Shown one piece after another: positions 3,823 to 44,624 of a DNA stretch of 64,000 nt. The notes under the pieces were generated by a model that made no database searches, had not been told where the DNA came from, and saw only the letters and a list, made by a program, of their open reading frames with translations. Position 1 is the stretch's first letter; every line of letters starts with the position of its first letter. This DNA is from Nanobdellota archaeon (GTDB taxonomy: Archaea; Nanobdellota; Nanobdellia; Pacearchaeales; GW2011-AR1): the NCBI GenBank assembly GCA_038046005.1, contig JBBSXB010000009.1, positions 7,952 through 71,951 on the forward strand, given 5' to 3'. The translations under genes and the position numbers were made by a program.

Positions 3823-5242
3823 ATCAGTTATAATGAAAAACTCTCAAGAAACAATTGATATAAATAGGGAAAGGTATGACCACTACAATCCAGAGGACCT
3901 TAAATTTAGGTCAAAACCCGGGATAAATGAAAATTTGATAAGAGAAATATCAAAAGACAAAAAAGAGCCAGAATGGATGTTAAAAAAAAGGTTAGAGGGA
4001 TTGAAACTTTTTAATGAAATAAAAATTCCAAACTGGGGCCCTGATCTTTCTGACCTGAATATTAATGAAATATCATTGTACATAAAACCAAATGCGAAAA
4101 GAAACTCTGAAAATTGGAATGATGTTCCTGAAGAAATAAAAAACACTTTTGAAAAGCTCGGAATCCCGCAAGCTGAAAGAGAAGTTTTGGCAGGAGTTGG
4201 AGCACAATATGAAAGTGAAGTTGTTTATCATAATCTGAAAAAAGAACTGAAAGACCAAGGAGTTATTTTCATAGATTGTGATGAGGCATTGAAAGAACAT
4301 GAAGAGCTTTTCAAAAAATATTTCATGACAACATGCATTCCTCCAAATTTGCATAAGTTCACAGCATTGCACGCAGCTGTATGGAGTGGAGGAACTTTTA
4401 TTTATATTCCAAAAGGAGTAAAATTAAAAGAACCACTGCACGCTTACTTCAGAATGAATGCAAAAAAAGCAGGCCAATTTGAACACACATTAATCATCGC
4501 TGATGAAGGCTCTGATCTTCATTATATTGAAGGATGTTCTGCCCCAGTATATTCTAAAAACTCACTTCATGCAGGAGGAGTCGAAATTCACGTATTAAAA
4601 GGAGCAAGAGTTCGTTATACTTCAATTGAAAACTGGAGTAAAAACACATATAATCTAAACACAAAAAGAGCAATTGTCCATGAAAACGGAATAATTGAAT
4701 GGGTAAATGGAAATTTAGGAAGTAAAGTAACAATGTTATATCCTTGCAGTGTTTTAATAGGAAAAAATTCAAAATCAGATTATATTGGGATAGCTTATGC
4801 TGGGCAAGGACAATATCAAGATACAGGATGCAAAGTGATTCATCTGGCTCCAAATACCTCATCAACAATTTTAAGCAAAGGGATAAGTAAAAATGGAGGA
4901 ATTAGTTCTTACAGAGGGCTAATAAAAATTCCAAAAGGATCAACAAACTCAAAATCAAGTGTAAGATGTGATGGACTGATGCTGGACAATTTAAGCAAGG
5001 CTTTAACATTTCCAAGCATGGAAGTTGGAGAAAATGAAGTTGAAGTTGCGCACGAAGCAGCAATTGGAAAAATAGGGGAAGAACAATTATTCTATTTGAT
5101 GTCAAGAGGTTTAAGTGAGCAAGATGCAATAAAAATAATTGTCTCAGGATTTATAGAGCCAGTAATAAAACTCTTGCCTTTGGAATATGCTGTTGAATTA
5201 AATAAATTAATAGAGTTGGAGATAGAAAACTCTGTATGTTAA
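3803..5242 (+). CDS. sufB: Fe-S cluster assembly protein SufB (alternative start MKNSQE at 3833)
   Basis: 479 aa; conserved SufB/SufD C-terminal beta-helix region ([45 protein letters not shown]). Confidence 0.85.
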
Positions 5243-5638
5243 ATGGAAAAATCACTTTACAAGGAAGAACTTCTTGAAATTTATTCTGAAAAACCAAACT
5301 ATGGAAAACTTAAAGGCAAAACTCATGAGCTAAAGCAAAGAAATCCAATTTGTGATGATGAAATAACTCTAGAATTAAAAATAAAAGACAATAAGATAAT
5401 TGACGCAAAGTTTCATGGAGTAAATTGTTTTGTGACAACTGTTTCATCATCTGTTTTAACTGAAAAAATAAAAGGAATGAAAATTGAACAGGCTTTAAAG
5501 TTGACAAAAAAAGATATTGATGAGTGGCTTGGAATAAAAATAACACCGGGAAGGATAAGATGTGAACTTTTAGCTTTGGATGCTTTAAAAAAATTAAAAA
5601 TAGATGTAAAAAACAATGCTAGAAATAAAAAATCTTAA
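5243..5638 (+). CDS. IscU/SufU-like Fe-S scaffold (NifU N-terminal domain)
   Basis: Three conserved Cys motifs: NPICDDE, GVNCFVTT, RIRCELLALDA (compare LHCSxLAEDA of IscU). Confidence 0.7.
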   Translation: MEKSLYKEELLEIYSEKPNYGKLKGKTHELKQRNPICDDEITLELKIKDNKIIDAKFHGVNCFVTTVSSSVLTEKIKGMKIEQALKLTKKDIDEWLGIKITPGRIRCELLALDALKKLKIDVKNNARNKKS

Positions 5639-6353
5639 AGTTGAAATAGAAGGAAAAGAAATTCTTAAAGGAATTAACTTAAAGCTTGAAGATGGAAAAA
5701 TACATGCATTAATGGGGCCAAATGGAAGTGGAAAAAGCACTCTTGCATTGGCTCTAATGAATCATCCTAAATACAAAATAACTTCAGGAAAAATTATTCT
5801 TAATGGAAAAGATATAACAAACCTCTCGCCAGATGAAAAAGCAAAAAAAGGATTATTTTTATCTTTCCAAAACCCCCAAGAAATTGATGGAGTAACAGTT
5901 TACAATTTTTTGAGACAAGCCTTAAATTCTGTAAGCAAAGAAAAAGTTTCAATTTTCGAATTCAGAAAATTAATTGAAAAAAAAGCAGAAGAGTTAGGAT
6001 TAGAAAAAGAATTTTTGCTGAGATACGTGAACGCAGGATTTTCTGGCGGAGAAAAAAAGAAATCAGAGATATTGCAGATGTTTGTACTTGATCCCAGCAT
6101 AGCTATACTTGACGAAACAGACTCTGGCCTTGACATTGACTCTCTAAAAACAATATCTGAAGGAATAAAAAAATTCACAAAAAAAGGAAAAATATCTCTG
6201 ATAATAACTCACTACAAAAGAATGTTGGAATATCTTAAGCCAGATAAAATATTCATAATGAGTGATGGAAAAATAGCCCTTGAAGGAGATAAAACCCTTG
6301 CAGATGAATTGGAAAAGAAAGGATATAAGGGTGTGCTGAGTGGGAAAGGTTAG
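5616..6353 (+). CDS. sufC: Fe-S cluster assembly ATPase SufC (ABC ATPase)
   Basis: Walker A LMGPNGSGKST, ABC signature FSGGEKKK, Walker B ILDETDSGLD. Confidence 0.9.
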   Translation: MLEIKNLKVEIEGKEILKGINLKLEDGKIHALMGPNGSGKSTLALALMNHPKYKITSGKIILNGKDITNLSPDEKAKKGLFLSFQNPQEIDGVTVYNFLRQALNSVSKEKVSIFEFRKLIEKKAEELGLEKEFLLRYVNAGFSGGEKKKSEILQMFVLDPSIAILDETDSGLDIDSLKTISEGIKKFTKKGKISLIITHYKRMLEYLKPDKIFIMSDGKIALEGDKTLADELEKKGYKGVLSGKG

Positions 6354-21310: not shown

Positions 21311-21433
21311 GTCCGGGTAGCTCAGTCGGTAGAGCGCACGGCTGTTACAACACGAACTGAAAAGTTCGTGGAGTCTGATAGCTCAGATAACGCAGAGACC
21401 GTGAAGTCGCAGGTTCGAGTCCTGCCCTGGACG
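21311..21433 (+). tRNA. tRNA-Asn(GTT) with 50-nt intron at 37/38
   Basis: GTCCGGG acceptor, D-arm GCTC-AGTCGGTA-GAGC, anticodon stem CACGG/CCGTG with loop CUGUUA|A, variable AAGTC, T-arm GCAGG-TTCGAGT-CCTGC, discriminator G. Confidence 0.55.
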
Positions 21434-32313: not shown

Positions 32314-33639
32314 TCACGGCTTCCATCTCGTCATTGTTCTTGGAAAAGGAATTGCATCTTTGATAGTTTCTAAACCACATATCCATGAGATAACTCTTTC
32401 TGTTCCCATTCCAAACCCACCATGAGGAATACTTCCATATCTTCTAGTATCAAGATAAAATTCATAATTTGCAGGATCTTCACCCATATCAACAAGATTT
32501 TCTTTTATTTTTTTAATATCAGATTCCCTTTCAGAACCCCCAATAATTTCTCCATAACCTTCGGGTGCAATAAAGTCAACGCCATGAACAACTTTCTTGT
32601 CTTCGGGAGCCTCTTTCATGTAAAATGCCTTTACAATCTTTGGATAATTTGTAATCATGATAGGAACATCAAACATGGCACTCAACTTGTCTTCTTCAAC
32701 TGTCCTCAAATCTTTTCCCCACTCAACATTCATGTGGGCTTTTTCTTTAAGAAGTTTCAATGCCTCAGTGTAAGTTATTCTGACAAACTTTTTCTTTATG
32801 ACAGGTTCCAACTTTTTCACATCTCTCTCAAGAATTTGCAACTCTTCTTTATTTTCATCCAAAACTTTTTTAACAATATGTTTTATGAGTCCTTCTCCAT
32901 AACTCAAGATATCATCGAAACTCGCCCACGCAACTTCCATCTCTGCATGCCAATATTCTGTCAAGTGTCTGGAAGTTTTTGATTTCTCGGCCCTGAATGA
33001 AGGAGCAATTGTATAAATTTTTTCCAAACTAAAAATTGCAGGTTCTGCATACAACTGCCAAGATTGAGATAAGAAAACTCCTTTCTGTCCAAAATAGGGA
33101 ATAGAAAACAATGTTGATCCCCCTTCTGACTGAACGCTCTGAAAAATAGGACTTTGATATTCATAAAATCCTTCCCCCCTAAAATAATCGTGAATAGCGC
33201 CAAACACAGTGCTTCTAATCTTTAAAATAGAAGTCATCTTCCTGCTTCTCAACCATAAATGTCTTCTATCTCCTAAAAGTTCTTCATTCAAATCTTTGTT
33301 GATTGGAAAATCCTCTGCAATCTGTATAATGTTTATTTTTTCGGCAGAAATCTCAAATCCTGTCGGTGCTCTCTTGTCTTCTTTTATTGCTCCTTCAATC
33401 TCAACACTGCTTTCAATTTTTATTTTGTCTATCTCATCCCACTGCTTTTCAAATTTGCCCCTGTCCAAAACACACTGAATTATATCACTTGCATCTCTCA
33501 ACACAAGGAATTTCATCTTGTTGCTTCCTCTCTCTCTGTGTATCCATCCACGCACAGCTACTTTTCCGCTGCCTTTCTTCATGGCCTCTTTTATTGAAAG
33601 GAATTTTGTGGATGCCATGGTTTTACTAAACAACAACAT
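32314..33639 (-). CDS. asnS: class IIb aminoacyl-tRNA synthetase, probably asparaginyl-tRNA synthetase
   Basis: N-terminal OB anticodon-binding domain; motif 2 FRAEKSKTSRHLTEYWHAEME; LSQSWQLYAE instead of the AspRS QSPQ. Confidence 0.55.
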   Translation of the reverse strand: MLLFSKTMASTKFLSIKEAMKKGSGKVAVRGWIHRERGSNKMKFLVLRDASDIIQCVLDRGKFEKQWDEIDKIKIESSVEIEGAIKEDKRAPTGFEISAEKINIIQIAEDFPINKDLNEELLGDRRHLWLRSRKMTSILKIRSTVFGAIHDYFRGEGFYEYQSPIFQSVQSEGGSTLFSIPYFGQKGVFLSQSWQLYAEPAIFSLEKIYTIAPSFRAEKSKTSRHLTEYWHAEMEVAWASFDDILSYGEGLIKHIVKKVLDENKEELQILERDVKKLEPVIKKKFVRITYTEALKLLKEKAHMNVEWGKDLRTVEEDKLSAMFDVPIMITNYPKIVKAFYMKEAPEDKKVVHGVDFIAPEGYGEIIGGSERESDIKKIKENLVDMGEDPANYEFYLDTRRYGSIPHGGFGMGTERVISWICGLETIKDAIPFPRTMTRWKP

Positions 33640-33668: not shown

Positions 33669-34070
33669 ATGAAAAATTTTTATACCAAAATAGACAAAAC
33701 GCTAAAAAAAGCTCCAAAAAGAGTTATAGGAATGTATAATAATTTGATAGCCGGAATAATAGGAGGAACTATAATTTATTACCTATTAATCTTAAAAACT
33801 CTTGAGAATATAATTCTAGGATTTTTTTATGTATTGATTCTAATGATTCTAGGATTTCTTATTTTATTGAATATTTTAAAAAATATAAGAAGCAAAAAAT
33901 CAAAAAAAGATGAACTAAAAAATTATATCTGGAATGTGCTAATGGCTTTATTAGGGGGTTTTTATTTATTACTAGTATTTAATTTAGGATTAAACAAAAT
34001 TTTGTCAGGATTAATTCTTTTAGTTTTATTCATACTGATCAGTTATTTTAGAAATAAATATAACTTCTAA
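33669..34070 (+). CDS. hypothetical membrane protein
   Basis: Four TM helices. Confidence 0.35.
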   Translation: MKNFYTKIDKTLKKAPKRVIGMYNNLIAGIIGGTIIYYLLILKTLENIILGFFYVLILMILGFLILLNILKNIRSKKSKKDELKNYIWNVLMALLGGFYLLLVFNLGLNKILSGLILLVLFILISYFRNKYNF

Positions 34071-34113
34071 GGAGTCAACCTCATTCTATCTTTAGGAAAT
34101 AATGTAGCTTCTC

Positions 34114-34968
34114 TTATGTTAAACCTTTCTTAACTAGAAACTCCTTAAGAATTTTTTGTTTTCTGTCTATTGTAAAACCAACTAGCGAATAAAACAATAA
34201 AATAGAATTCTTATCATGAATCCTTAAAACATATTTTTGAGAAGTGTTTGGTCTTAAATCCTTCTTTTTTATTATAGTAGATCTTATCTTCAAAAAAGAA
34301 AGCAAATCTTGAACCTCTTTTAAGCCACCAAAATTCATAGAAACTGCTCCAACTCTACCAATCTTTCTGTCTATTTCACCCTCAGAGTCAAAGAAACCCA
34401 TTATGAAAGAGGATTTTATATTGCCATCACTAGTTTTGATAATTTCTGGAACTTTCCATTTATCTTTACCAAAATTTCCAAATTCTAAGATAAAATCACA
34501 AGCTTCTTTAGAACACAATCTGGTCACATATTGATCGCGCCAATTACTATTCCTTGATTTTCTGAATTCTGTAGTTGGATTTATTTTAAAGTAATTTCTT
34601 AAAACATTTCTAAACTTATCAACAAACTCTTTATCAGTAGCTGATAAAACAATATGGTATCTTCTTAATTTTTTATTGCAGCTAATGCACCCATCTCCAC
34701 ATAAAACTCCAAAAATATAAGATAAGTCTTCACTTATTATTAAATCACTAGGAATATTATGTTTCTTTATTTTGATTCTTCCAGATTTAACACCTTCTTT
34801 TGCAGCCGAACTCTTGTTTCTTCTTTCAATGTTTAGTCTTTTCATATGATGGAGAATTGTAGAGTGTTGAATGTTAAACCTTTTAGCAATTTCCCAAGTT
34901 GACAAACCAGAGCCATATAAAGAAGAAATAGACAGAATATTACTATTTGTTAACTTTCTTGTTACCAT
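34114..34968 (-). CDS. free-standing LAGLIDADG homing endonuclease with N-terminal HTH
   Basis: Two LAGLIDADG motifs (LSYIFGVLCGDGCIS and FIMGFFDSEGEI); N-terminal sigma-70 region-4-like HTH GLSTWEIAKRFNIQHSTILHHMKRL. Confidence 0.75.
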   Translation of the reverse strand: MVTRKLTNSNILSISSLYGSGLSTWEIAKRFNIQHSTILHHMKRLNIERRNKSSAAKEGVKSGRIKIKKHNIPSDLIISEDLSYIFGVLCGDGCISCNKKLRRYHIVLSATDKEFVDKFRNVLRNYFKINPTTEFRKSRNSNWRDQYVTRLCSKEACDFILEFGNFGKDKWKVPEIIKTSDGNIKSSFIMGFFDSEGEIDRKIGRVGAVSMNFGGLKEVQDLLSFLKIRSTIIKKKDLRPNTSQKYVLRIHDKNSILLFYSLVGFTIDRKQKILKEFLVKKGLT

Positions 34969-35095
34969 CTTTTTTTATAGTTATTTCAACTAGCTCTCCT
35001 TTCTTCAATTTGAATTTTTCTATAATAGAATAAGGAATTGTTACAACAATAGCATTTCCAGTTTTCCACAATTTAGCATCGAATTGTCTCTTCAT
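34943..35095 (-). CDS. AbrB/SpoVT-family small DNA-binding protein (50 aa), overlapping the HEG start by 26 nt in a different frame
   Basis: Not in the ORF track (<60 aa). MKRQFDAKLWKTGNAIVVTIPYSIIEKFKLKKGELVEITIKKDGNKKVNK matches the swapped-hairpin AbrB/MazE pattern. Confidence 0.45.
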   Translation of the reverse strand: MKRQFDAKLWKTGNAIVVTIPYSIIEKFKLKKGELVEITIKKDGNKKVNK

Positions 35096-35162
35096 TTTGT
35101 ATTTACAATGTAAATACATAGAGATATATAAAGTTTAATATTATCTAAAAAGTAGTTAATAA

Positions 35163-36443
35163 TTAAGGAGTTAATCTATTTCTATCACGAGGAAAAAGAG
35201 TTGCCTCACGAATGTTAGGAAGACTCAGCATAGTTTGCGTCAAACGCTCTAAACCTATTGACCATCCACTGTGAATAGGACTACCATACCTGAAAGAATC
35301 AATATACCATTTGAAATTTTCTGGCTTCAAACCTTTTGCCTTCAGATTTTTTATCAAAATATCAGGAACATGAATTCTTTGTCCACCAGAAGAAATTTCT
35401 ATTCCCCCATAAAGTGCATCAAATCCTCCAGAAACTCCAGTCTTCTCATCTTTAGGCCAAATATAAAAAGGTTTTATCTTAGAAGGCCACTCATATGTAA
35501 AAACAATGCAGTTAGGGAACAACCCACAAAGTTTTCTCTCGGCTTCAGGCTCAAAATCATCTCCATCTTTCATTTTTATTCCATGTTTGTTCATCAAATC
35601 CAAAGCTTCTTTATATTTCAAATATTTAACATCAGGAACTTTTAATTTAACTCCTAACAAATCCAGCTCAGTTTTGCATGTATCAATAACTTTCTTAAAG
35701 ATATATTTAACAACTTCTTCAAGATGTTTCATAATCCCAATGTCATCCTCAAAAGCCATTTCAATATCCATTTGTCTTATCTCATTGATGTGCTTTGAAG
35801 TATCGTGCTTCTCAGCCCTCCAAACGGGAGTTATAAGAAAAACTCTTTCCATTGAAATTGCCATAAGCTGTTTGTATAATTGGGGGCTTTGAGCAAGATA
35901 AGCAGGCTTGTCAAAATAATTTATCTTAAACAAATCGGTTCCCCCTTCTGTTGAAGTTCCAATAATTGCGGGAGTTTGTATCTCTATAAAATTTTTGTTT
36001 GCAAAAAATTCTCTGAATGAATTTGCGATCACAGATTGAATCTTGAAAATTGCCATCACTTTCGGTTTTCTGACATCTAAGCTCCTATAATCAAGCCTTG
36101 AAGGCAGTTCAGCACTGACAGCTTTTTCATTGACTTGTATTGGTAATTTTTCAGCCTTGGCCAAAACAACTAAATTTTCAACTTCAACTTCAGCGTCTTT
36201 CCTTGCCAAATCATTTTTGACATCAGCTTTCTTTACTTTTCCCTGAATCTCAATAACACTTTCCAAAGTAAGTGAAGGAATCTCTTTCAGGATTTTTTCA
36301 TCTTTTATAATACACTGCACAATTCCAGAATTATCTCTTAAAAGGATAAATGCCATCTTTGACATGATTCTAAGCTCATGACACCATCCCTTCAACAAAA
36401 CTTCCTGCCCTATTTTTACTTCCTTGATAAAAGAGCGTTGCAT
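35163..36443 (-). CDS. aspS: aspartyl-tRNA synthetase (archaeal/eukaryotic type)
   Basis: YLAQSPQLYKQ motif, motif 2 WRAEKHDTSKHINEIRQMDIEMAF, motif 3 GGIEISSGGQRIH. Confidence 0.75.
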   Translation of the reverse strand: MQRSFIKEVKIGQEVLLKGWCHELRIMSKMAFILLRDNSGIVQCIIKDEKILKEIPSLTLESVIEIQGKVKKADVKNDLARKDAEVEVENLVVLAKAEKLPIQVNEKAVSAELPSRLDYRSLDVRKPKVMAIFKIQSVIANSFREFFANKNFIEIQTPAIIGTSTEGGTDLFKINYFDKPAYLAQSPQLYKQLMAISMERVFLITPVWRAEKHDTSKHINEIRQMDIEMAFEDDIGIMKHLEEVVKYIFKKVIDTCKTELDLLGVKLKVPDVKYLKYKEALDLMNKHGIKMKDGDDFEPEAERKLCGLFPNCIVFTYEWPSKIKPFYIWPKDEKTGVSGGFDALYGGIEISSGGQRIHVPDILIKNLKAKGLKPENFKWYIDSFRYGSPIHSGWSIGLERLTQTMLSLPNIREATLFPRDRNRLTP

Positions 36444-37326: not shown

Positions 37327-37935
37327 ATGAAGTCAGAGCAAGAATTAATTAACCACATAGAAAAACATGAAAATTCTTCTTTAGTAAGAGCTGTGCTAGC
37401 TGGGAACACAACTTTCAAACGAGAAGCACGAAGGTTTTATGATTTAGAAGTGCGTATAATAGCTGGAAGAGGAATGGCTGGAAAATTATTCAATTTTAAA
37501 AAGGAGAGTACACTAAAATTAAACCAGAATCCTACGGAATTAATAGAGTTACTTCAGCCATTTAGTGATGAACCTATAGATAAAAATAAATTGGATTATG
37601 AGAAAGTAAGAGAAGATTACAAAAGGTGGCACTCGGGATTAAGAAAGCTAAAAATAGTTGGAATAAATATTGGAAAATTAAGTATACTTATAGGATCAGC
37701 CTTTATTACAGCAAACAACCTAGATAATTTATTGCTAGCAGTTCCTTCAGGAGCAATAACTGTTGTTGGTTCTTTTTTATACAATAAAATACTTCCTACA
37801 AACAAACCTCCAAAAAACACAAACTACGAGTTTATAGAATATATGAAAATAGATGACGCTGTTTATGAAGCTGATGGTTTTATGGATAAACAATATAGAA
37901 AATATTTTGTGGGAAAAAATCTCAAAACTAAGTAA
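37327..37935 (+). CDS. hypothetical protein
   Basis: ORF track. Confidence 0.3.
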   Translation: MKSEQELINHIEKHENSSLVRAVLAGNTTFKREARRFYDLEVRIIAGRGMAGKLFNFKKESTLKLNQNPTELIELLQPFSDEPIDKNKLDYEKVREDYKRWHSGLRKLKIVGINIGKLSILIGSAFITANNLDNLLLAVPSGAITVVGSFLYNKILPTNKPPKNTNYEFIEYMKIDDAVYEADGFMDKQYRKYFVGKNLKTK

Positions 37936-39376
37936 ATCTCTTAAACTCATTTGTATGTTTTTTGATTATTTCCATTGCTTCGCTGCCGGAAATCTTGCCT
38001 TTATATTTCTGCATGACCAACCCCATGTAAGCATTTGCATTTAATCCAGGGTTAGATTTTATTAAATTTAAAATTCCCTCTTCAATTTCACCATAATCAA
38101 TTTTTGCAGTCGCCTCTTCAAAACTCATTCCTTCAACAAGCCTGTCAAGAACTCCCTTAACATCCCCCTCATTTATTTTTCCTTTTTTGACTAGTTCTAA
38201 AACACTAGGGATCTGGTCTTCAAGTTTTTCCAAAACACTTTCAAAACTAAGCTTCTTTTTTGAAGCAATCTCTTTAGTAAAAACCAAAAGCGTTTTCGCG
38301 ACAAATTGTGGCCTGTTTAAAATAATTAGAAGTTCTTTAAATTCTTCGAGTTTTCTTTCCTTAAACAAAATAGAAATCATTTCCTCAGAAAGTCCTTGTT
38401 TTCTTAATTCATTTTCAGTTTCTTCTCTTAGTTTAGGAAGATTTTTTTTAGACACATTTATCATATCCCTTGAAATTTTCAATAAAGGCAAATCAGTTTC
38501 TGGATACATCCTCGCTGCACCAGATATTGGCCTTAGAATAACGGAGCTTCCATCTTCAAGAACATTCCTTACCTCTTTATCATTTTTTAAACCTCTATTG
38601 ACAAAATTAAGCTGCCTCTCAACTTCTTTTTCAATTGTCCTTATCATAAGTTTCGGGTCTTGAAATCCTTTAAGCTCAACTCTATTGCTCCCTTTAACTG
38701 AAATGTTAATATCCTGTCTTATTGTCCCAATTCCTCTTTTAACCTGGCACGCTCTCAATATTTCGCCAATCTTCAGCGCAGTTTCTTTCGCCTGCTCTGC
38801 ATTTTTTACGTCCGGCATTGTGGAAATTTCAACAAGTGGAATTCCCAGCCTGTCTAATCTGTAAATTACCTCACCATCTTTCTTGCTGACAAGTCTGGCA
38901 GAATCCTCCTCCAAAAAAATTCCACTTATTCCAACTCTCCCAAAACTAGTGTCAACAAATCCATCTCTAGCTATCATGACTGTCCTTTGAAATCCAGAAG
39001 TGTTGCTTCCATTGATGACCGTTTTTCTCATAATCTGTGTTATCGGAATTATTGTGGCGTTAAGCAAAGCAGAAATTTGCAAGACTATTCCTAAAGCGTC
39101 TTTATTAATTTCGTGAGGGGGCTCTTCATCCAATTCAACGAGACAGTTAGTGTTGTAAACTTGATAGACAAATTCCTCTCCCAAAGAGGCCTCATGCTCT
39201 GCAGCCATGTCAATTTCTCCAGCCTCTCCGGCTACAACATGGAGCCTTCTTCTGACAACTATCTCAGGATCATCACTCCTAAAAATGCTAGGGCAATTGC
39301 AGAAAAGTTTTCTAGTATCAAGTTGCTGATGAATTTCCAATCCAGCTTTAAAGCCTATTTTAGTGTAATCAAACAT
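37928..39376 (-). CDS. gatE: Glu-tRNA(Gln) amidotransferase subunit E (compact GatE; GatB/E family)
   Basis: N-terminus GFKAGLEIHQQLDTRKLFCNCPS (GatE-type EIHQQL); C-terminal GatB/YqeY-like helical domain; gatD present 2.7 kb away. Confidence 0.7.
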   Translation of the reverse strand: MFDYTKIGFKAGLEIHQQLDTRKLFCNCPSIFRSDDPEIVVRRRLHVVAGEAGEIDMAAEHEASLGEEFVYQVYNTNCLVELDEEPPHEINKDALGIVLQISALLNATIIPITQIMRKTVINGSNTSGFQRTVMIARDGFVDTSFGRVGISGIFLEEDSARLVSKKDGEVIYRLDRLGIPLVEISTMPDVKNAEQAKETALKIGEILRACQVKRGIGTIRQDINISVKGSNRVELKGFQDPKLMIRTIEKEVERQLNFVNRGLKNDKEVRNVLEDGSSVILRPISGAARMYPETDLPLLKISRDMINVSKKNLPKLREETENELRKQGLSEEMISILFKERKLEEFKELLIILNRPQFVAKTLLVFTKEIASKKKLSFESVLEKLEDQIPSVLELVKKGKINEGDVKGVLDRLVEGMSFEEATAKIDYGEIEEGILNLIKSNPGLNANAYMGLVMQKYKGKISGSEAMEIIKKHTNEFKRFT

Positions 39377-44125: not shown

Positions 44126-44515
44126 ATGAGAAGAAATTTAATTGCAGGATATGTTTTGGGAGGATTACTCACAATTGGAGGTGTGCTGACAGGAGAATAT
44201 GAAAGAATTAATGGGAAAGAAATTTTAAAAAGTAATCCCAGTTATGCGGAATACATTCAGCTAAATGATCAAATAGAAAATTTAAATCAGCTTTATGATA
44301 TGACCTCTCATTATAAAGAATTGAGATTATATAAAGAATTGAGATTACATGAAAGAGATAGTTTAAAATCCAAAAGAGATAGCTTAGAAAGTCTTGCCTC
44401 AACACAAAAAGGAATAAAAGAAGCGGAAAATAACGATTCAGCAGATTTTGCTTCTTTTGTTTTGTTTACGCTGGGTTTATCTTTACTTGGGGCAACAGCA
44501 ATTAATCATAAATGA
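44126..44515 (+). CDS. hypothetical N-terminally membrane-anchored protein with internal tandem repeats
   Basis: YKELRLYKELRLHERDSLKSKRDSLESL encoded by an 18-bp tandem duplication. Confidence 0.35.
   Translation: MRRNLIAGYVLGGLLTIGGVLTGEYERINGKEILKSNPSYAEYIQLNDQIENLNQLYDMTSHYKELRLYKELRLHERDSLKSKRDSLESLASTQKGIKEAENNDSADFASFVLFTLGLSLLGATAINHK
44312..44347 (+). repeat. 18-bp perfect tandem duplication (tataaagaattgagatta x2) inside CDS
   Basis: Direct reading of the sequence. Confidence 0.8.
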
Positions 44516-44624
44516 GCCTACTAGGAATCGAACCTAGATCAACGGGGTTTTTCAAAAGTAATCCACATAATAAAGCAAACGACTTTTCCGAAACCCGCCG
44601 TTCTATCCATTAAACTATAGGCCC
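44513..44624 (-). tRNA. tRNA-Arg(TCG) with 40-nt intron at 37/38
   Basis: Minus-strand read: GGGCCTA acceptor, D-arm GTTT-AATGGATA-GAAC, anticodon stem GCGGG/CCCGT with loop UUUCGG|C, T-arm CTAGG-TTCGATT-CCTAG, discriminator A. Confidence 0.5.

Follow-up and report, generated by a model that had tools for sequence, protein, structure and literature searches.

Analysis of a 64,000-nucleotide (nt) stretch of the genome of a Nanobdellota archaeon (contig JBBSXB010000009.1 of assembly GCA_038046005.1), referred to below as the window, indicates that a pair of genes located between the aspartyl-tRNA synthetase (AspRS) gene aspS and the asparaginyl-tRNA synthetase (AsnRS) gene asnS probably belongs to a selfish homing cassette of about 1.1 kb. 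The cassette would be specific for the 3' end of aspS, autoregulated, devoid of an intron or intein, and of the mORF type known from fungal mitochondria. The pair consists of a gene encoding a free-standing LAGLIDADG endonuclease and of a 50-codon gene, abrB, encoding a predicted swapped-hairpin DNA binder. In our best reading of the locus, the cassette comprises, besides abrB and the LAGLIDADG gene, a replacement tail for aspS as well as a TATA box and a palindrome. The pair is flanked on both sides by aspS tail sequences that have diverged from each other; the one joined to aspS is foreign, and the native one is displaced. Close relatives have empty sites, occupied sites are scattered across the host tree, and the relationships of the nuclease and of its host aspS are incongruent. 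The features of the locus are collected in Table 1, and loci of relatives that were compared with the window are designated by L-numbers (L001 etc.).

Duplicated and exchanged 3' end of aspS

The two copies of the aspS 3' end are direct repeats of 54 nt, spaced by 1096 nt and identical in 72% of nucleotides. Of the 17 residues encoded by each, 15 are the same and the nucleotide differences are nearly all synonymous, which implies that both copies evolved as working aspS tails in separate lineages and were united later, and argues against a recent tandem duplication. The downstream copy (remnant), which in the window overlaps the stop codon of the nuclease gene and is out of frame with it, is 88% identical to AspRS residues 410-426 as determined by tblastn.

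Comparison of the window with its closest relative, L009 (AspRS and GatB 92% and 93% identical, respectively), reveals that the aspS of the window is a mosaic. Over nt 1-1140, the two genes share 80-92% of their nucleotides; at the 3' end (last ~140 nt) the identity decreases to 62-70%, and this part of the window gene is closest to another lineage, represented by L010 (78-83%). The breakpoint is situated immediately ahead of class II motif 3. The remnant in the window and the functional tail of L009 have in common a Met codon that is otherwise unique (DRMRLTP; ATG AGG TTG), which indicates that the remnant is native and that the tail now present on aspS arrived with the cassette. These sequence comparisons identify the upstream copy, which is in use, as foreign and the downstream one as native.

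A duplicated aspS 3' end flanks the nuclease gene also in L001, L005, L007, L089-L103, L111 and L130. The remnants behind the nuclease are 21, 44, 54, 75 or 87 nt long in different loci, and that of L130 carries an internal stop codon. Remnants retain the peptide FPRDRDRLTP despite many synonymous changes. About 13 loci have the remnant in frame with the open reading frame (ORF) of the nuclease and about 5 have it out of frame, with at least 10 different junctions, and several nuclease homologs end in ...NIREATMFPRDRDRLTP, which is the AspRS C-terminus. One possible reason for the in-frame read-through to the native stop codon is that it preserves the ATGA coupling with asnS, as e.g., in L090.

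The resident tails of occupied alleles differ from those of empty alleles in codon usage. Among alleles of the window's aspS type, 14 of the 15 occupied ones contain at least one CGN Arg codon in the FPRDRxR segment; a CGN codon is present in 18 of the 75 empty alleles and absent from the other 57 (Fisher p = 6e-7, with no correction for phylogeny). AGA or AGG is used in empty alleles and in remnants. This recoding is consistent with a replacement tail travelling with the cassette. The asnS gene was considered as an alternative target and rejected: its tail (IPFPRTMTRWKP) differs, and no nuclease gene was found behind any asnS.

Empty and occupied alleles in relatives

A scan of 185,579 species-representative genomes (GTDB) with the window AspRS, from which the best 80 loci (AspRS 47-92% identical) were kept, revealed a nuclease homolog behind aspS in only one of them (L038), the remaining 79 loci being empty. 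In L009, the aspS stop codon overlaps the asnS start codon (ccATGA) and nothing lies between the two genes, which identifies this site as empty. Thus, the inspection of aspS for an empty homing site, proposed together with the original prediction (made from the window sequence without database searches), did yield such a site. Overlap of aspS and asnS by ATGA was also observed in relatives.

The occupied state in its pure form is represented by L090, in which aspS is followed by abrB, by a nuclease gene fused in frame to the native aspS tail (75 nt), and by asnS at the same ATGA. A pair of alleles with and without the insert is provided by L111 and L062, whose flanks are 96.9% identical over 3.6 kb. 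L111 contains a 1343-nt insert with a 105-amino acid (aa) ORF and a gene for a 334-aa nuclease, at whose borders 21 nt of the aspS end are duplicated; the final 21 nt of the native aspS are still present downstream of the insert. The remnant of L091 matches the tail of its empty sister L065 at 93% identity, compared with 85% for the gene body. Close relatives with empty alleles are L009, L062, L065 and L015. Occupied alleles are dispersed as single tips, next to empty sisters, over a neighbour-joining tree built from 106 AspRS sequences.

Linkage to aspS and incongruence with its phylogeny

A metagenome scan with the nuclease alignment provided 80 more loci. Every nuclease homolog of at least about 37% identity for which upstream sequence is available follows an aspS gene. 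In every contig inspected, the nuclease gene is directly behind aspS, often in a gatB-aspS-...-gatC-gatA neighbourhood, and usually with an overlapping gene for a 49-51-aa AbrB. The host aspS genes themselves belong to at least four types, which are mutually 30-43% identical, and of which one encodes a bacterial-type AspRS (NF001750, 2e-205).

The relationships of the nucleases do not follow those of their host aspS genes. Within the abrB-bearing nuclease clade, hosts with different aspS types are intermixed; in 221 of 325 pairs (r = 0.38) the nucleases show a higher identity than the AspRS proteins, and the two trees disagree. For instance, between the window and L003 or L005 the nucleases are 65-66% and the AbrB proteins 73-76% identical, compared with 54-57% for GatB and 30-38% for AspRS.

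Since the pair always stands behind aspS, the locus seemed at first to be syntenic and invariant across relatives, which was to speak against mobility, and the conserved synteny gave an initial impression of domestication. That impression was reversed by the empty sites in 79 of the 80 relatives and was dropped after the AspRS genome scan: the constant linkage to aspS reflects target-site specificity and not vertical invariance. Among the interpretations offered in the original prediction, that of a recently mobilised element is the one that agrees with the empty closest relative, the mosaic aspS 3' end, the scattered occupancy and the displaced tail. While the observations made in that prediction stand, its interpretation holds only in part, and the decisive feature, the duplicated aspS tail, had gone unnoticed in it.

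LAGLIDADG nuclease

The presence of both LAGLIDADG motifs and an N-terminal helix-turn-helix (HTH) in the nuclease, read from the sequence in the original prediction, is borne out by database searches. Pfam LAGLIDADG_3 matches the protein at 4e-16, with the match split over two stretches, and HTH_38 matches its aa 4-44 at 3.2e-5. Both motifs align in 22 orthologs: G91-D92-G93 of motif 1 (GVLCGDG) and D194-S195 of motif 2 (GFFDSEG) are invariant, while residue 196 is E in 20 of the 22 sequences and D in the other two. Both acidic catalytic positions (D92 and E196) are kept, and the ORF is conserved across 40-77% identity. In the AlphaFold2 model (predicted local distance difference test score, pLDDT, 91.6), the order of helices and strands is that expected for the doubled alpha-beta-beta-alpha-beta-beta-alpha fold. 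The best matches to this model in the PDB, as found with the use of Foldseek (4e-12 to 1e-9), are the endonuclease of the TliVMA intein (3.9e-12), PI-PfuI and I-DmoI (template modelling score, TM, 0.74-0.76). By sequence, the nuclease core is nearest to PI-PfuI (1.6e-7), and the HTH resembles 2lvs.

The nuclease is also free-standing, as had been predicted. No match to a Hint/intein domain was found in the protein and no Rfam intron in the region; the nuclease gene has its own start codon and aspS its own stop codon. The ORF is thus neither embedded in a self-splicing intron nor located between Hint domains. The identical nuclease protein is encoded, in unchanged gene order, on 13 independently assembled contigs, which indicates that the locus is not an assembly artefact.

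The family of this nuclease is modest. It comprises about 58 full-length homologs of 42-77% identity, each in few copies, and 216 clusters at E <= 1e-30 among 1.84 billion representatives. A search of IMG/VR yielded one distant (31%) match and no more, and a viral vector for the cassette was rejected on this basis. Elsewhere in the window, neither the nuclease nor AbrB nor the palindrome was found to recur. Long orthologs (327-343 aa) were considered as AbrB-nuclease fusions or frameshift products, but their extra ~45 aa proved to be a second, C-terminal HTH. The ancestral architecture of the family is HTH-LAGLIDADG-HTH, and the C-terminal HTH was lost in the subclade of the window. Many free-standing HTH-LAGLIDADG-HTH metagenome proteins (L123-L168) are 27-36% identical to the window protein, and in L008 an HTH-LAGLIDADG-HTH gene (4974-5888) adjoins MCM and TnpB/Cas12f-like genes. 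In L133, the nuclease gene behind aspS (526-1319) is frameshifted (from frame 1 into frame 3 around nt 1030), being either a decaying copy or the result of a sequencing error; the frameshift is consistent with decay after fixation.

AbrB and its putative promoter

The 50-codon AbrB-type ORF that was proposed to overlap the nuclease start could be corroborated as well. The overlap is 26 nt (34943..34968), the protein matches PF04014 (MazE/AbrB) at 7.9e-6 (26.2 bits vs. the curated cut-off of 24.7), and the ORF is conserved in more than 20 other loci. A mechanically called ORF would encode 58 aa from an ATG at 35119. The orthologs all start with MKR(K/Q)FDAKLWKTGNA, and these starts, together with the promoter layout, indicate that the start at 35095, giving 50 codons, is the true one. 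The AbrB orthologs are 48-51 aa long and 69-83% identical, and are thus more conserved than the nuclease (median ratio of nonsynonymous to synonymous substitution rates, dN/dS, 0.10 at dS 1.2). Apart from a short and variable C-terminal part rich in Lys and Glu, they consist of the conserved AbrB domain, with no toxin-neutralising region beyond the DNA-binding domain. The closest solved structures, matched by a profile of 18 orthologs at 3-4e-4, are those of the stand-alone archaeal AbrB regulators 5itm and 2l66.

A common layout precedes abrB in 22 loci: TTTATATA, 6-7 nt, TGTATTTACA(A/T)TGTAAATACA, 1-4 nt, and ATG. The palindrome is unique in the window (0 expected by chance) and near-invariant in every abrB-bearing locus with upstream sequence; it was found neither in abrB-less nuclease loci nor in the remainder of the ~170 loci. 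AbrB, the TATA box and the palindrome thus co-occur strictly. The constant company of the palindrome lends indirect support to the predicted DNA binding by a swapped-hairpin AbrB dimer. Archaeal repressors act between the TATA box and the start codon, and the palindrome is, on account of its sequence context, probably the AbrB operator. Its rare variants are single, uncompensated changes, and so a protein-binding site is expected rather than an RNA stem. An RNA hairpin or an aspS terminator is not favoured for the same reason, and also because the palindrome is downstream of the conserved TATA box and absent from abrB-less elements. A role of the palindrome as the nuclease target was rejected, given its absence from abrB-less nuclease loci.

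Most abrB-less relatives of the nuclease gene are located directly behind aspS, with a gap of 30-100 nt, and are presumably co-transcribed with it, which suggests that AbrB and the promoter were acquired by one subclade. Nuclease genes without abrB directly follow aspS in L006, L098, L109, L113, L114, L118-L122 and L125. In two abrB-less cassettes, those of L111 (3653-3970) and L038 (5375-5674), small ORFs of 105 and 99 aa, respectively, with no match in Pfam, are situated between aspS and the nuclease gene. They may be alternative partner or regulator genes.

Proposed mechanism of homing

In the proposed mechanism, the nuclease, as a monomeric enzyme with two LAGLIDADG motifs and with the aid of its HTH, would cut unoccupied aspS within the last ~20-125 nt of the gene, i.e., in a region that encodes motif 3 and FPRDRDRLTP. 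Repair of the double-strand break would then introduce the cassette, with an occupied allele as the template. The upstream flank (15-140 nt) would be co-converted, which would install the recoded tail, with CGN in place of AGR Arg codons, so that AspRS would be kept intact and the resident tail would probably be uncuttable. The native tail would be displaced downstream, and in many loci it forms the in-frame 3' terminus of the nuclease ORF, by which the native stop/start overlap with asnS would be maintained. In the subclade of the window, a dimer of the 50-aa AbrB is predicted to bind the 21-bp palindrome over the transcription start and to repress its own bicistronic operon, which would keep the nuclease scarce.

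Several observations weigh against such a mechanism, or at least against its simplest form. The remnants range from 21 to 87 nt, and the insertion point may thus vary by lineage or the remnants may have been trimmed. Long remnants, such as that of 75 nt in L090, would contain any target located in the last ~50 nt. Ordinary homologous recombination between the conserved flanks could also move the cassette. The comparison of Arg codons ignores phylogeny, the trees are simple neighbour-joining ones, and the occupancy counts are biased by locus sampling. Moreover, L010 (2582-3201) and L012 (1678-2931) hold in the same slot a VapB-like gene and a PIN/VapC gene (PF01850, 1.5e-13), and intact cassettes are present in L005 (3379-5935), L092 and L103 behind a bacterial-type aspS without the presumed target.

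In the case of L010 and L012, whose AspRS proteins are 76-78% identical to that of the window, both the CGT-recoded tail and the remnant of the aspS tail are present. The occurrence of VapBC together with the tail duplication indicates that the slot can be filled without this nuclease and that the 3' flank of aspS is a general landing pad, at which swapping of cargo is likely. A pair of DUF2683 and ParE-like genes is present just beyond VapBC in L012.

Behind the cassettes of L005, L092 and L103, a remnant of an archaeal-type aspS tail, of up to 29 aa, persists. Either aspS was displaced in situ after the arrival of the cassette, or the entry of the cassette is not always target-dependent. The archaeal remnant behind a bacterial-type gene points to the former, namely to the replacement in situ of an archaeal gene for an essential synthetase by its bacterial counterpart. 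The presence of cassettes behind aspS genes lacking the target is consistent with persistence without homing. The bacterial-type AspRS (without the GAD insertion) was observed at the gatB-aspS position in some Nanoarchaeota.

Alternative explanations

By analogy to the bacterial WhiA, the nuclease could be a domesticated LAGLIDADG/HTH protein that, with AbrB as a co-regulator, controls the aspS-asnS/gatCAB (Asn-tRNA) cluster. The constant position of the pair beside aspS in the conserved gatB-aspS-...-gatC-gatA neighbourhood, the one or two HTH domains of these nucleases, and the persistence of intact copies behind bacterial-type aspS without the presumed target would agree with this explanation, as would the presence of WhiA (3hyi) among the structural matches. 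The latter match is weak, however (rank 46 in Foldseek), and the best matches are active homing endonucleases. WhiA has lost its catalytic residues, is near-universal in its lineages and is inherited vertically. The window protein has a LAGLIDADG scaffold and an HTH like WhiA, but it keeps both acidic residues and its distribution is patchy, with one carrier among the 80 related species representatives and with near-isogenic genomes that lack the nuclease. In addition, a duplicated recoded tail and a mosaic aspS have no role in a regulator model, and the palindrome is tied to the promoter of abrB and not to those of aspS, asnS or the gat genes. A domesticated endonuclease or regulator pair, as envisaged in the original prediction, thus appears very improbable, retained catalytic residues and the rarity of the gene being hard to reconcile with it. 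The resemblance to a toxin-antitoxin arrangement noted there holds for the architecture but not for the function. A type II addiction module with AbrB as the antitoxin and the nuclease as the toxin, maintained by post-segregational killing and not by homing, is suggested by the small AbrB/MazE-type gene that is upstream of the nuclease gene and overlaps it, by the putative operator at the promoter, and by a genuine VapBC pair and a ParE-like pair that use this slot in L010 and L012; if recombination between the repeats removed the cassette, a cleavable tail would also be restored, with an addiction-like effect. Yet AbrB, at 48-51 aa, is essentially a DNA-binding domain alone, as in stand-alone archaeal AbrB regulators. 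Many aspS-linked nucleases have neither AbrB nor any other partner, which indicates that the nuclease is tolerated alone and that the pairing is not obligate. The duplicated tail and the pattern of empty and occupied sites, in turn, denote site-specific insertion, which is beyond what toxin-antitoxin modules do by themselves. We consider this explanation quite unlikely.

Similarly low is the probability that the nuclease is inactive or irrelevant and that the segment is a passive cargo, moved by ordinary homologous recombination into a permissive landing pad in the aspS 3' flank. The variety of cargos at this one place (abrB with a nuclease gene, a nuclease gene alone, a nuclease gene with the 99-105-aa ORFs, VapBC, and a ParE-like pair) and the frameshifted copy in L133 could be so explained; against it speak the long-term conservation of the active-site residues and of the whole ORF across 40-77% identity, the exclusive linkage of the nuclease family to aspS, across types with little shared DNA homology, and the systematic recoding of resident tails. 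A further explanation concerns the origin of the cassette and not its present function: an ancestral intein in the motif-3/tail region of AspRS may have lost its splicing domain, upon which the endonuclease became a separate gene, the in-frame tail representing the former C-extein. Archaeal intein endonucleases are indeed the nearest sequence and structure matches of the nuclease, and its ORF continues in frame into the aspS tail in about 13 loci. This origin is nevertheless unlikely: no match to Hint or splicing blocks was found, the nuclease gene possesses a start codon and, in this clade, a promoter of its own and encodes an N-terminal HTH, the upstream aspS is complete with its own tail and stop codon, and the two tails differ in the way of a native and a foreign copy and not of a split extein.

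Relation to known systems

The homing cassette proposed here is most similar in its design to the mORF "gene hybrids" of fungal mitochondria, described in atp6 of Allomyces macrogynus and in atp6, atp9, cox2 and nad3 of Glomus, in which a LAGLIDADG or GIY-YIG ORF brings a foreign C-terminal segment and the native segment is left downstream (PMC3630166). As in mORFs, the nuclease gene is located in the 3' part of a conserved gene, the foreign tail is used, the native tail is downstream, and close relatives lack the insert. In both cases, the tail copies differ chiefly at synonymous sites (72% nucleotide vs. 88% amino acid identity in the window; 63.5% vs. 91% in Glomus atp6 (PMC3630166)). Unlike in mORFs, the host replicon is a chromosome of a DPANN archaeon and the target is an aminoacyl-tRNA synthetase gene, while the replacement tail has its own stop codon and the nuclease is encoded by a separate gene, with no fusion to the host gene. 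The nuclease also has extra HTH domains, and one subclade adds a putative TATA promoter, a putative operator palindrome and AbrB.

The Seg and Mob free-standing endonucleases of T-even phages, to which the term "intronless homing" is applied (PMC2790892, PMC2988022), are likewise encoded by lone genes at the edge of conserved genes or between them. They spread by double-strand-break repair with co-conversion of flanks, and the donor is protected by target differences; the same logic is proposed for the cassette of the window. They differ from it in being GIY-YIG or HNH enzymes, in spreading in mixed phage infection, and in lacking both a duplication of the target gene end and a dedicated AbrB repressor. 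With I-DmoI, PI-PfuI and the TliVMA endonuclease, archaeal enzymes encoded in rRNA introns or inteins, the window protein has in common the monomeric double-LAGLIDADG fold and the catalytic Asp/Glu pair. Its gene is outside an intron or intein, however, and the neutrality to the host would be achieved via a spare gene tail and not via splicing; the N-terminal HTH, accompanied in relatives by a C-terminal one, is also an addition.

The AbrB protein has the ~50-aa swapped-hairpin domain (PF04014) of archaeal AbrB regulators (5itm, 5itj and 2l66), MazE and VapB. As the first of two genes in an operon with a promoter palindrome, abrB resembles the regulator genes of autoregulated toxin-antitoxin systems and the controller genes of restriction-modification systems. 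Unlike MazE and VapB, AbrB has no toxin-binding extension, and its partner, a predicted homing endonuclease, belongs to none of the known toxin families. Only one subclade of the nucleases shows this pairing.

Archaeal homing endonucleases are known from rRNA introns and inteins, where the insertion is hidden by splicing. The provision of a spare end for the interrupted gene is an apparent third route to harmlessness for the LAGLIDADG class. In the library searched, we found no account of a homing endonuclease linked to aspS in archaea, DPANN included; the spare-tail design is described there for fungal mitochondria only, and in no paper for a prokaryotic chromosome. The target is the end of the catalytic core of an essential aminoacyl-tRNA synthetase, and so the element rewrites a part of the translation apparatus, which offers a mechanism for the origin of mosaic or exchanged aminoacyl-tRNA synthetase genes in DPANN archaea. 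AbrB, the TATA box and the palindrome constitute a compact, testable example of a putative regulator dedicated to a homing endonuclease, and the nuclease could prove to be a new natural rare cutter, for which a target of ~20 bp is predictable. A much broader scenario, which at present is doubtful, would have the cassette drive the exchange of aspS alleles among DPANN archaea. Co-conversion would repeatedly overwrite the motif-3/tail region and would have helped to yield at least three very different aspS types at this one locus, including the bacterial type with an archaeal remnant; read-through would have been selected for ATGA coupling to asnS, AbrB would be a dedicated "controller" that makes the endonuclease tolerable, and the whole would represent a new class of self-regulated archaeal homing elements.

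For genome annotation, these results mean that the 50-codon AbrB gene is real, although usually missed or mis-started, that a "LAGLIDADG family" protein is not to be taken as an intein fragment, and that C-terminal extensions of nuclease relatives, such as ...FPRDRDRLTP, are displaced pieces of AspRS.

Features of the locus and neighbouring genes

Table 1. Features of the aspS-linked cassette and its surroundings (positions in the window).
Feature	Position	Strand	Basis
aspS, host and target gene, archaeal non-discriminating-type AspRS, 426 aa	35163..36443	-	NF003483
Foreign replacement tract: 3'-terminal ~125-140 nt of aspS with class II motif 3 and the C-terminal tail (boundary approximate)	35163..35300	-	identity drop vs. 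L009
Direct repeat, left copy: resident functional aspS tail (...NIREATLFPRDRNRLTP and stop), CGT Arg codon	35164..35217	-	repeat search
TATA-box-like element TTTATATA, putative cassette promoter	35125..35132	-	fixed position in 22 loci
Perfect 21-bp palindrome TGTATTTACA-N-TGTAAATACA, putative AbrB operator	35098..35118	.	between TATA box and abrB ATG
abrB, 50 codons, predicted SpoVT/AbrB swapped-hairpin DNA binder	34943..35095	-	PF04014, orthologs
LAGLIDADG endonuclease gene, free-standing, 284 aa	34114..34968	-	Pfam, AlphaFold2, Foldseek
N-terminal HTH of the nuclease, aa 4-48	34825..34959	-	HTH_38
Nuclease motif 1, YIFGVLCGDG	34690..34719	-	ortholog alignment
Nuclease motif 2, FIMGFFDSEG	34378..34407	-	ortholog alignment
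Direct repeat, right copy: displaced native aspS tail remnant (NIREATLFPKDRMRLTP and stop)	34067..34120	-	repeat search
Predicted membrane-protein ORF, 133 aa, cassette membership uncertain	33669..34070	+	homology to L010 ORF

The host of the cassette is a low-GC DPANN archaeon whose tRNAs contain introns. The predicted location of the abrB-nuclease pair between the two synthetase genes holds, both gene assignments scoring above their cut-offs: the aspS product is an AspRS of the Asp-tRNA(Asn) type (NF003483, 5.8e-151, 503 bits vs. 353), and the product of asnS (32314..33639) is an AsnRS (NF003037, 489.5 bits vs. 414). The 133-aa ORF, which encodes a predicted membrane protein, is located between the remnant and asnS; it runs convergently to the remnant, whose stop codon it overlaps. 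It has no family match and is present neither in the empty allele L009 nor in the occupied allele L090, but is related to an ORF behind the remnant of L010 (69% over 207 nt).

While ARAGORN detected no tRNA gene in the window, Rfam revealed two intron-containing archaeal tRNA genes of 112-123 nt, at 21311-21433 (+) and 44513-44624 (-) (58 and 56 bits), which are unrelated to the cassette. Genes for AsnRS (32314-33639), the non-discriminating-type AspRS (35163-36443) and a GatB-like amidotransferase subunit (37928-39376) are clustered in the window, which suggests that the direct and the tRNA-dependent routes to Asn-tRNA may coexist in this archaeon.

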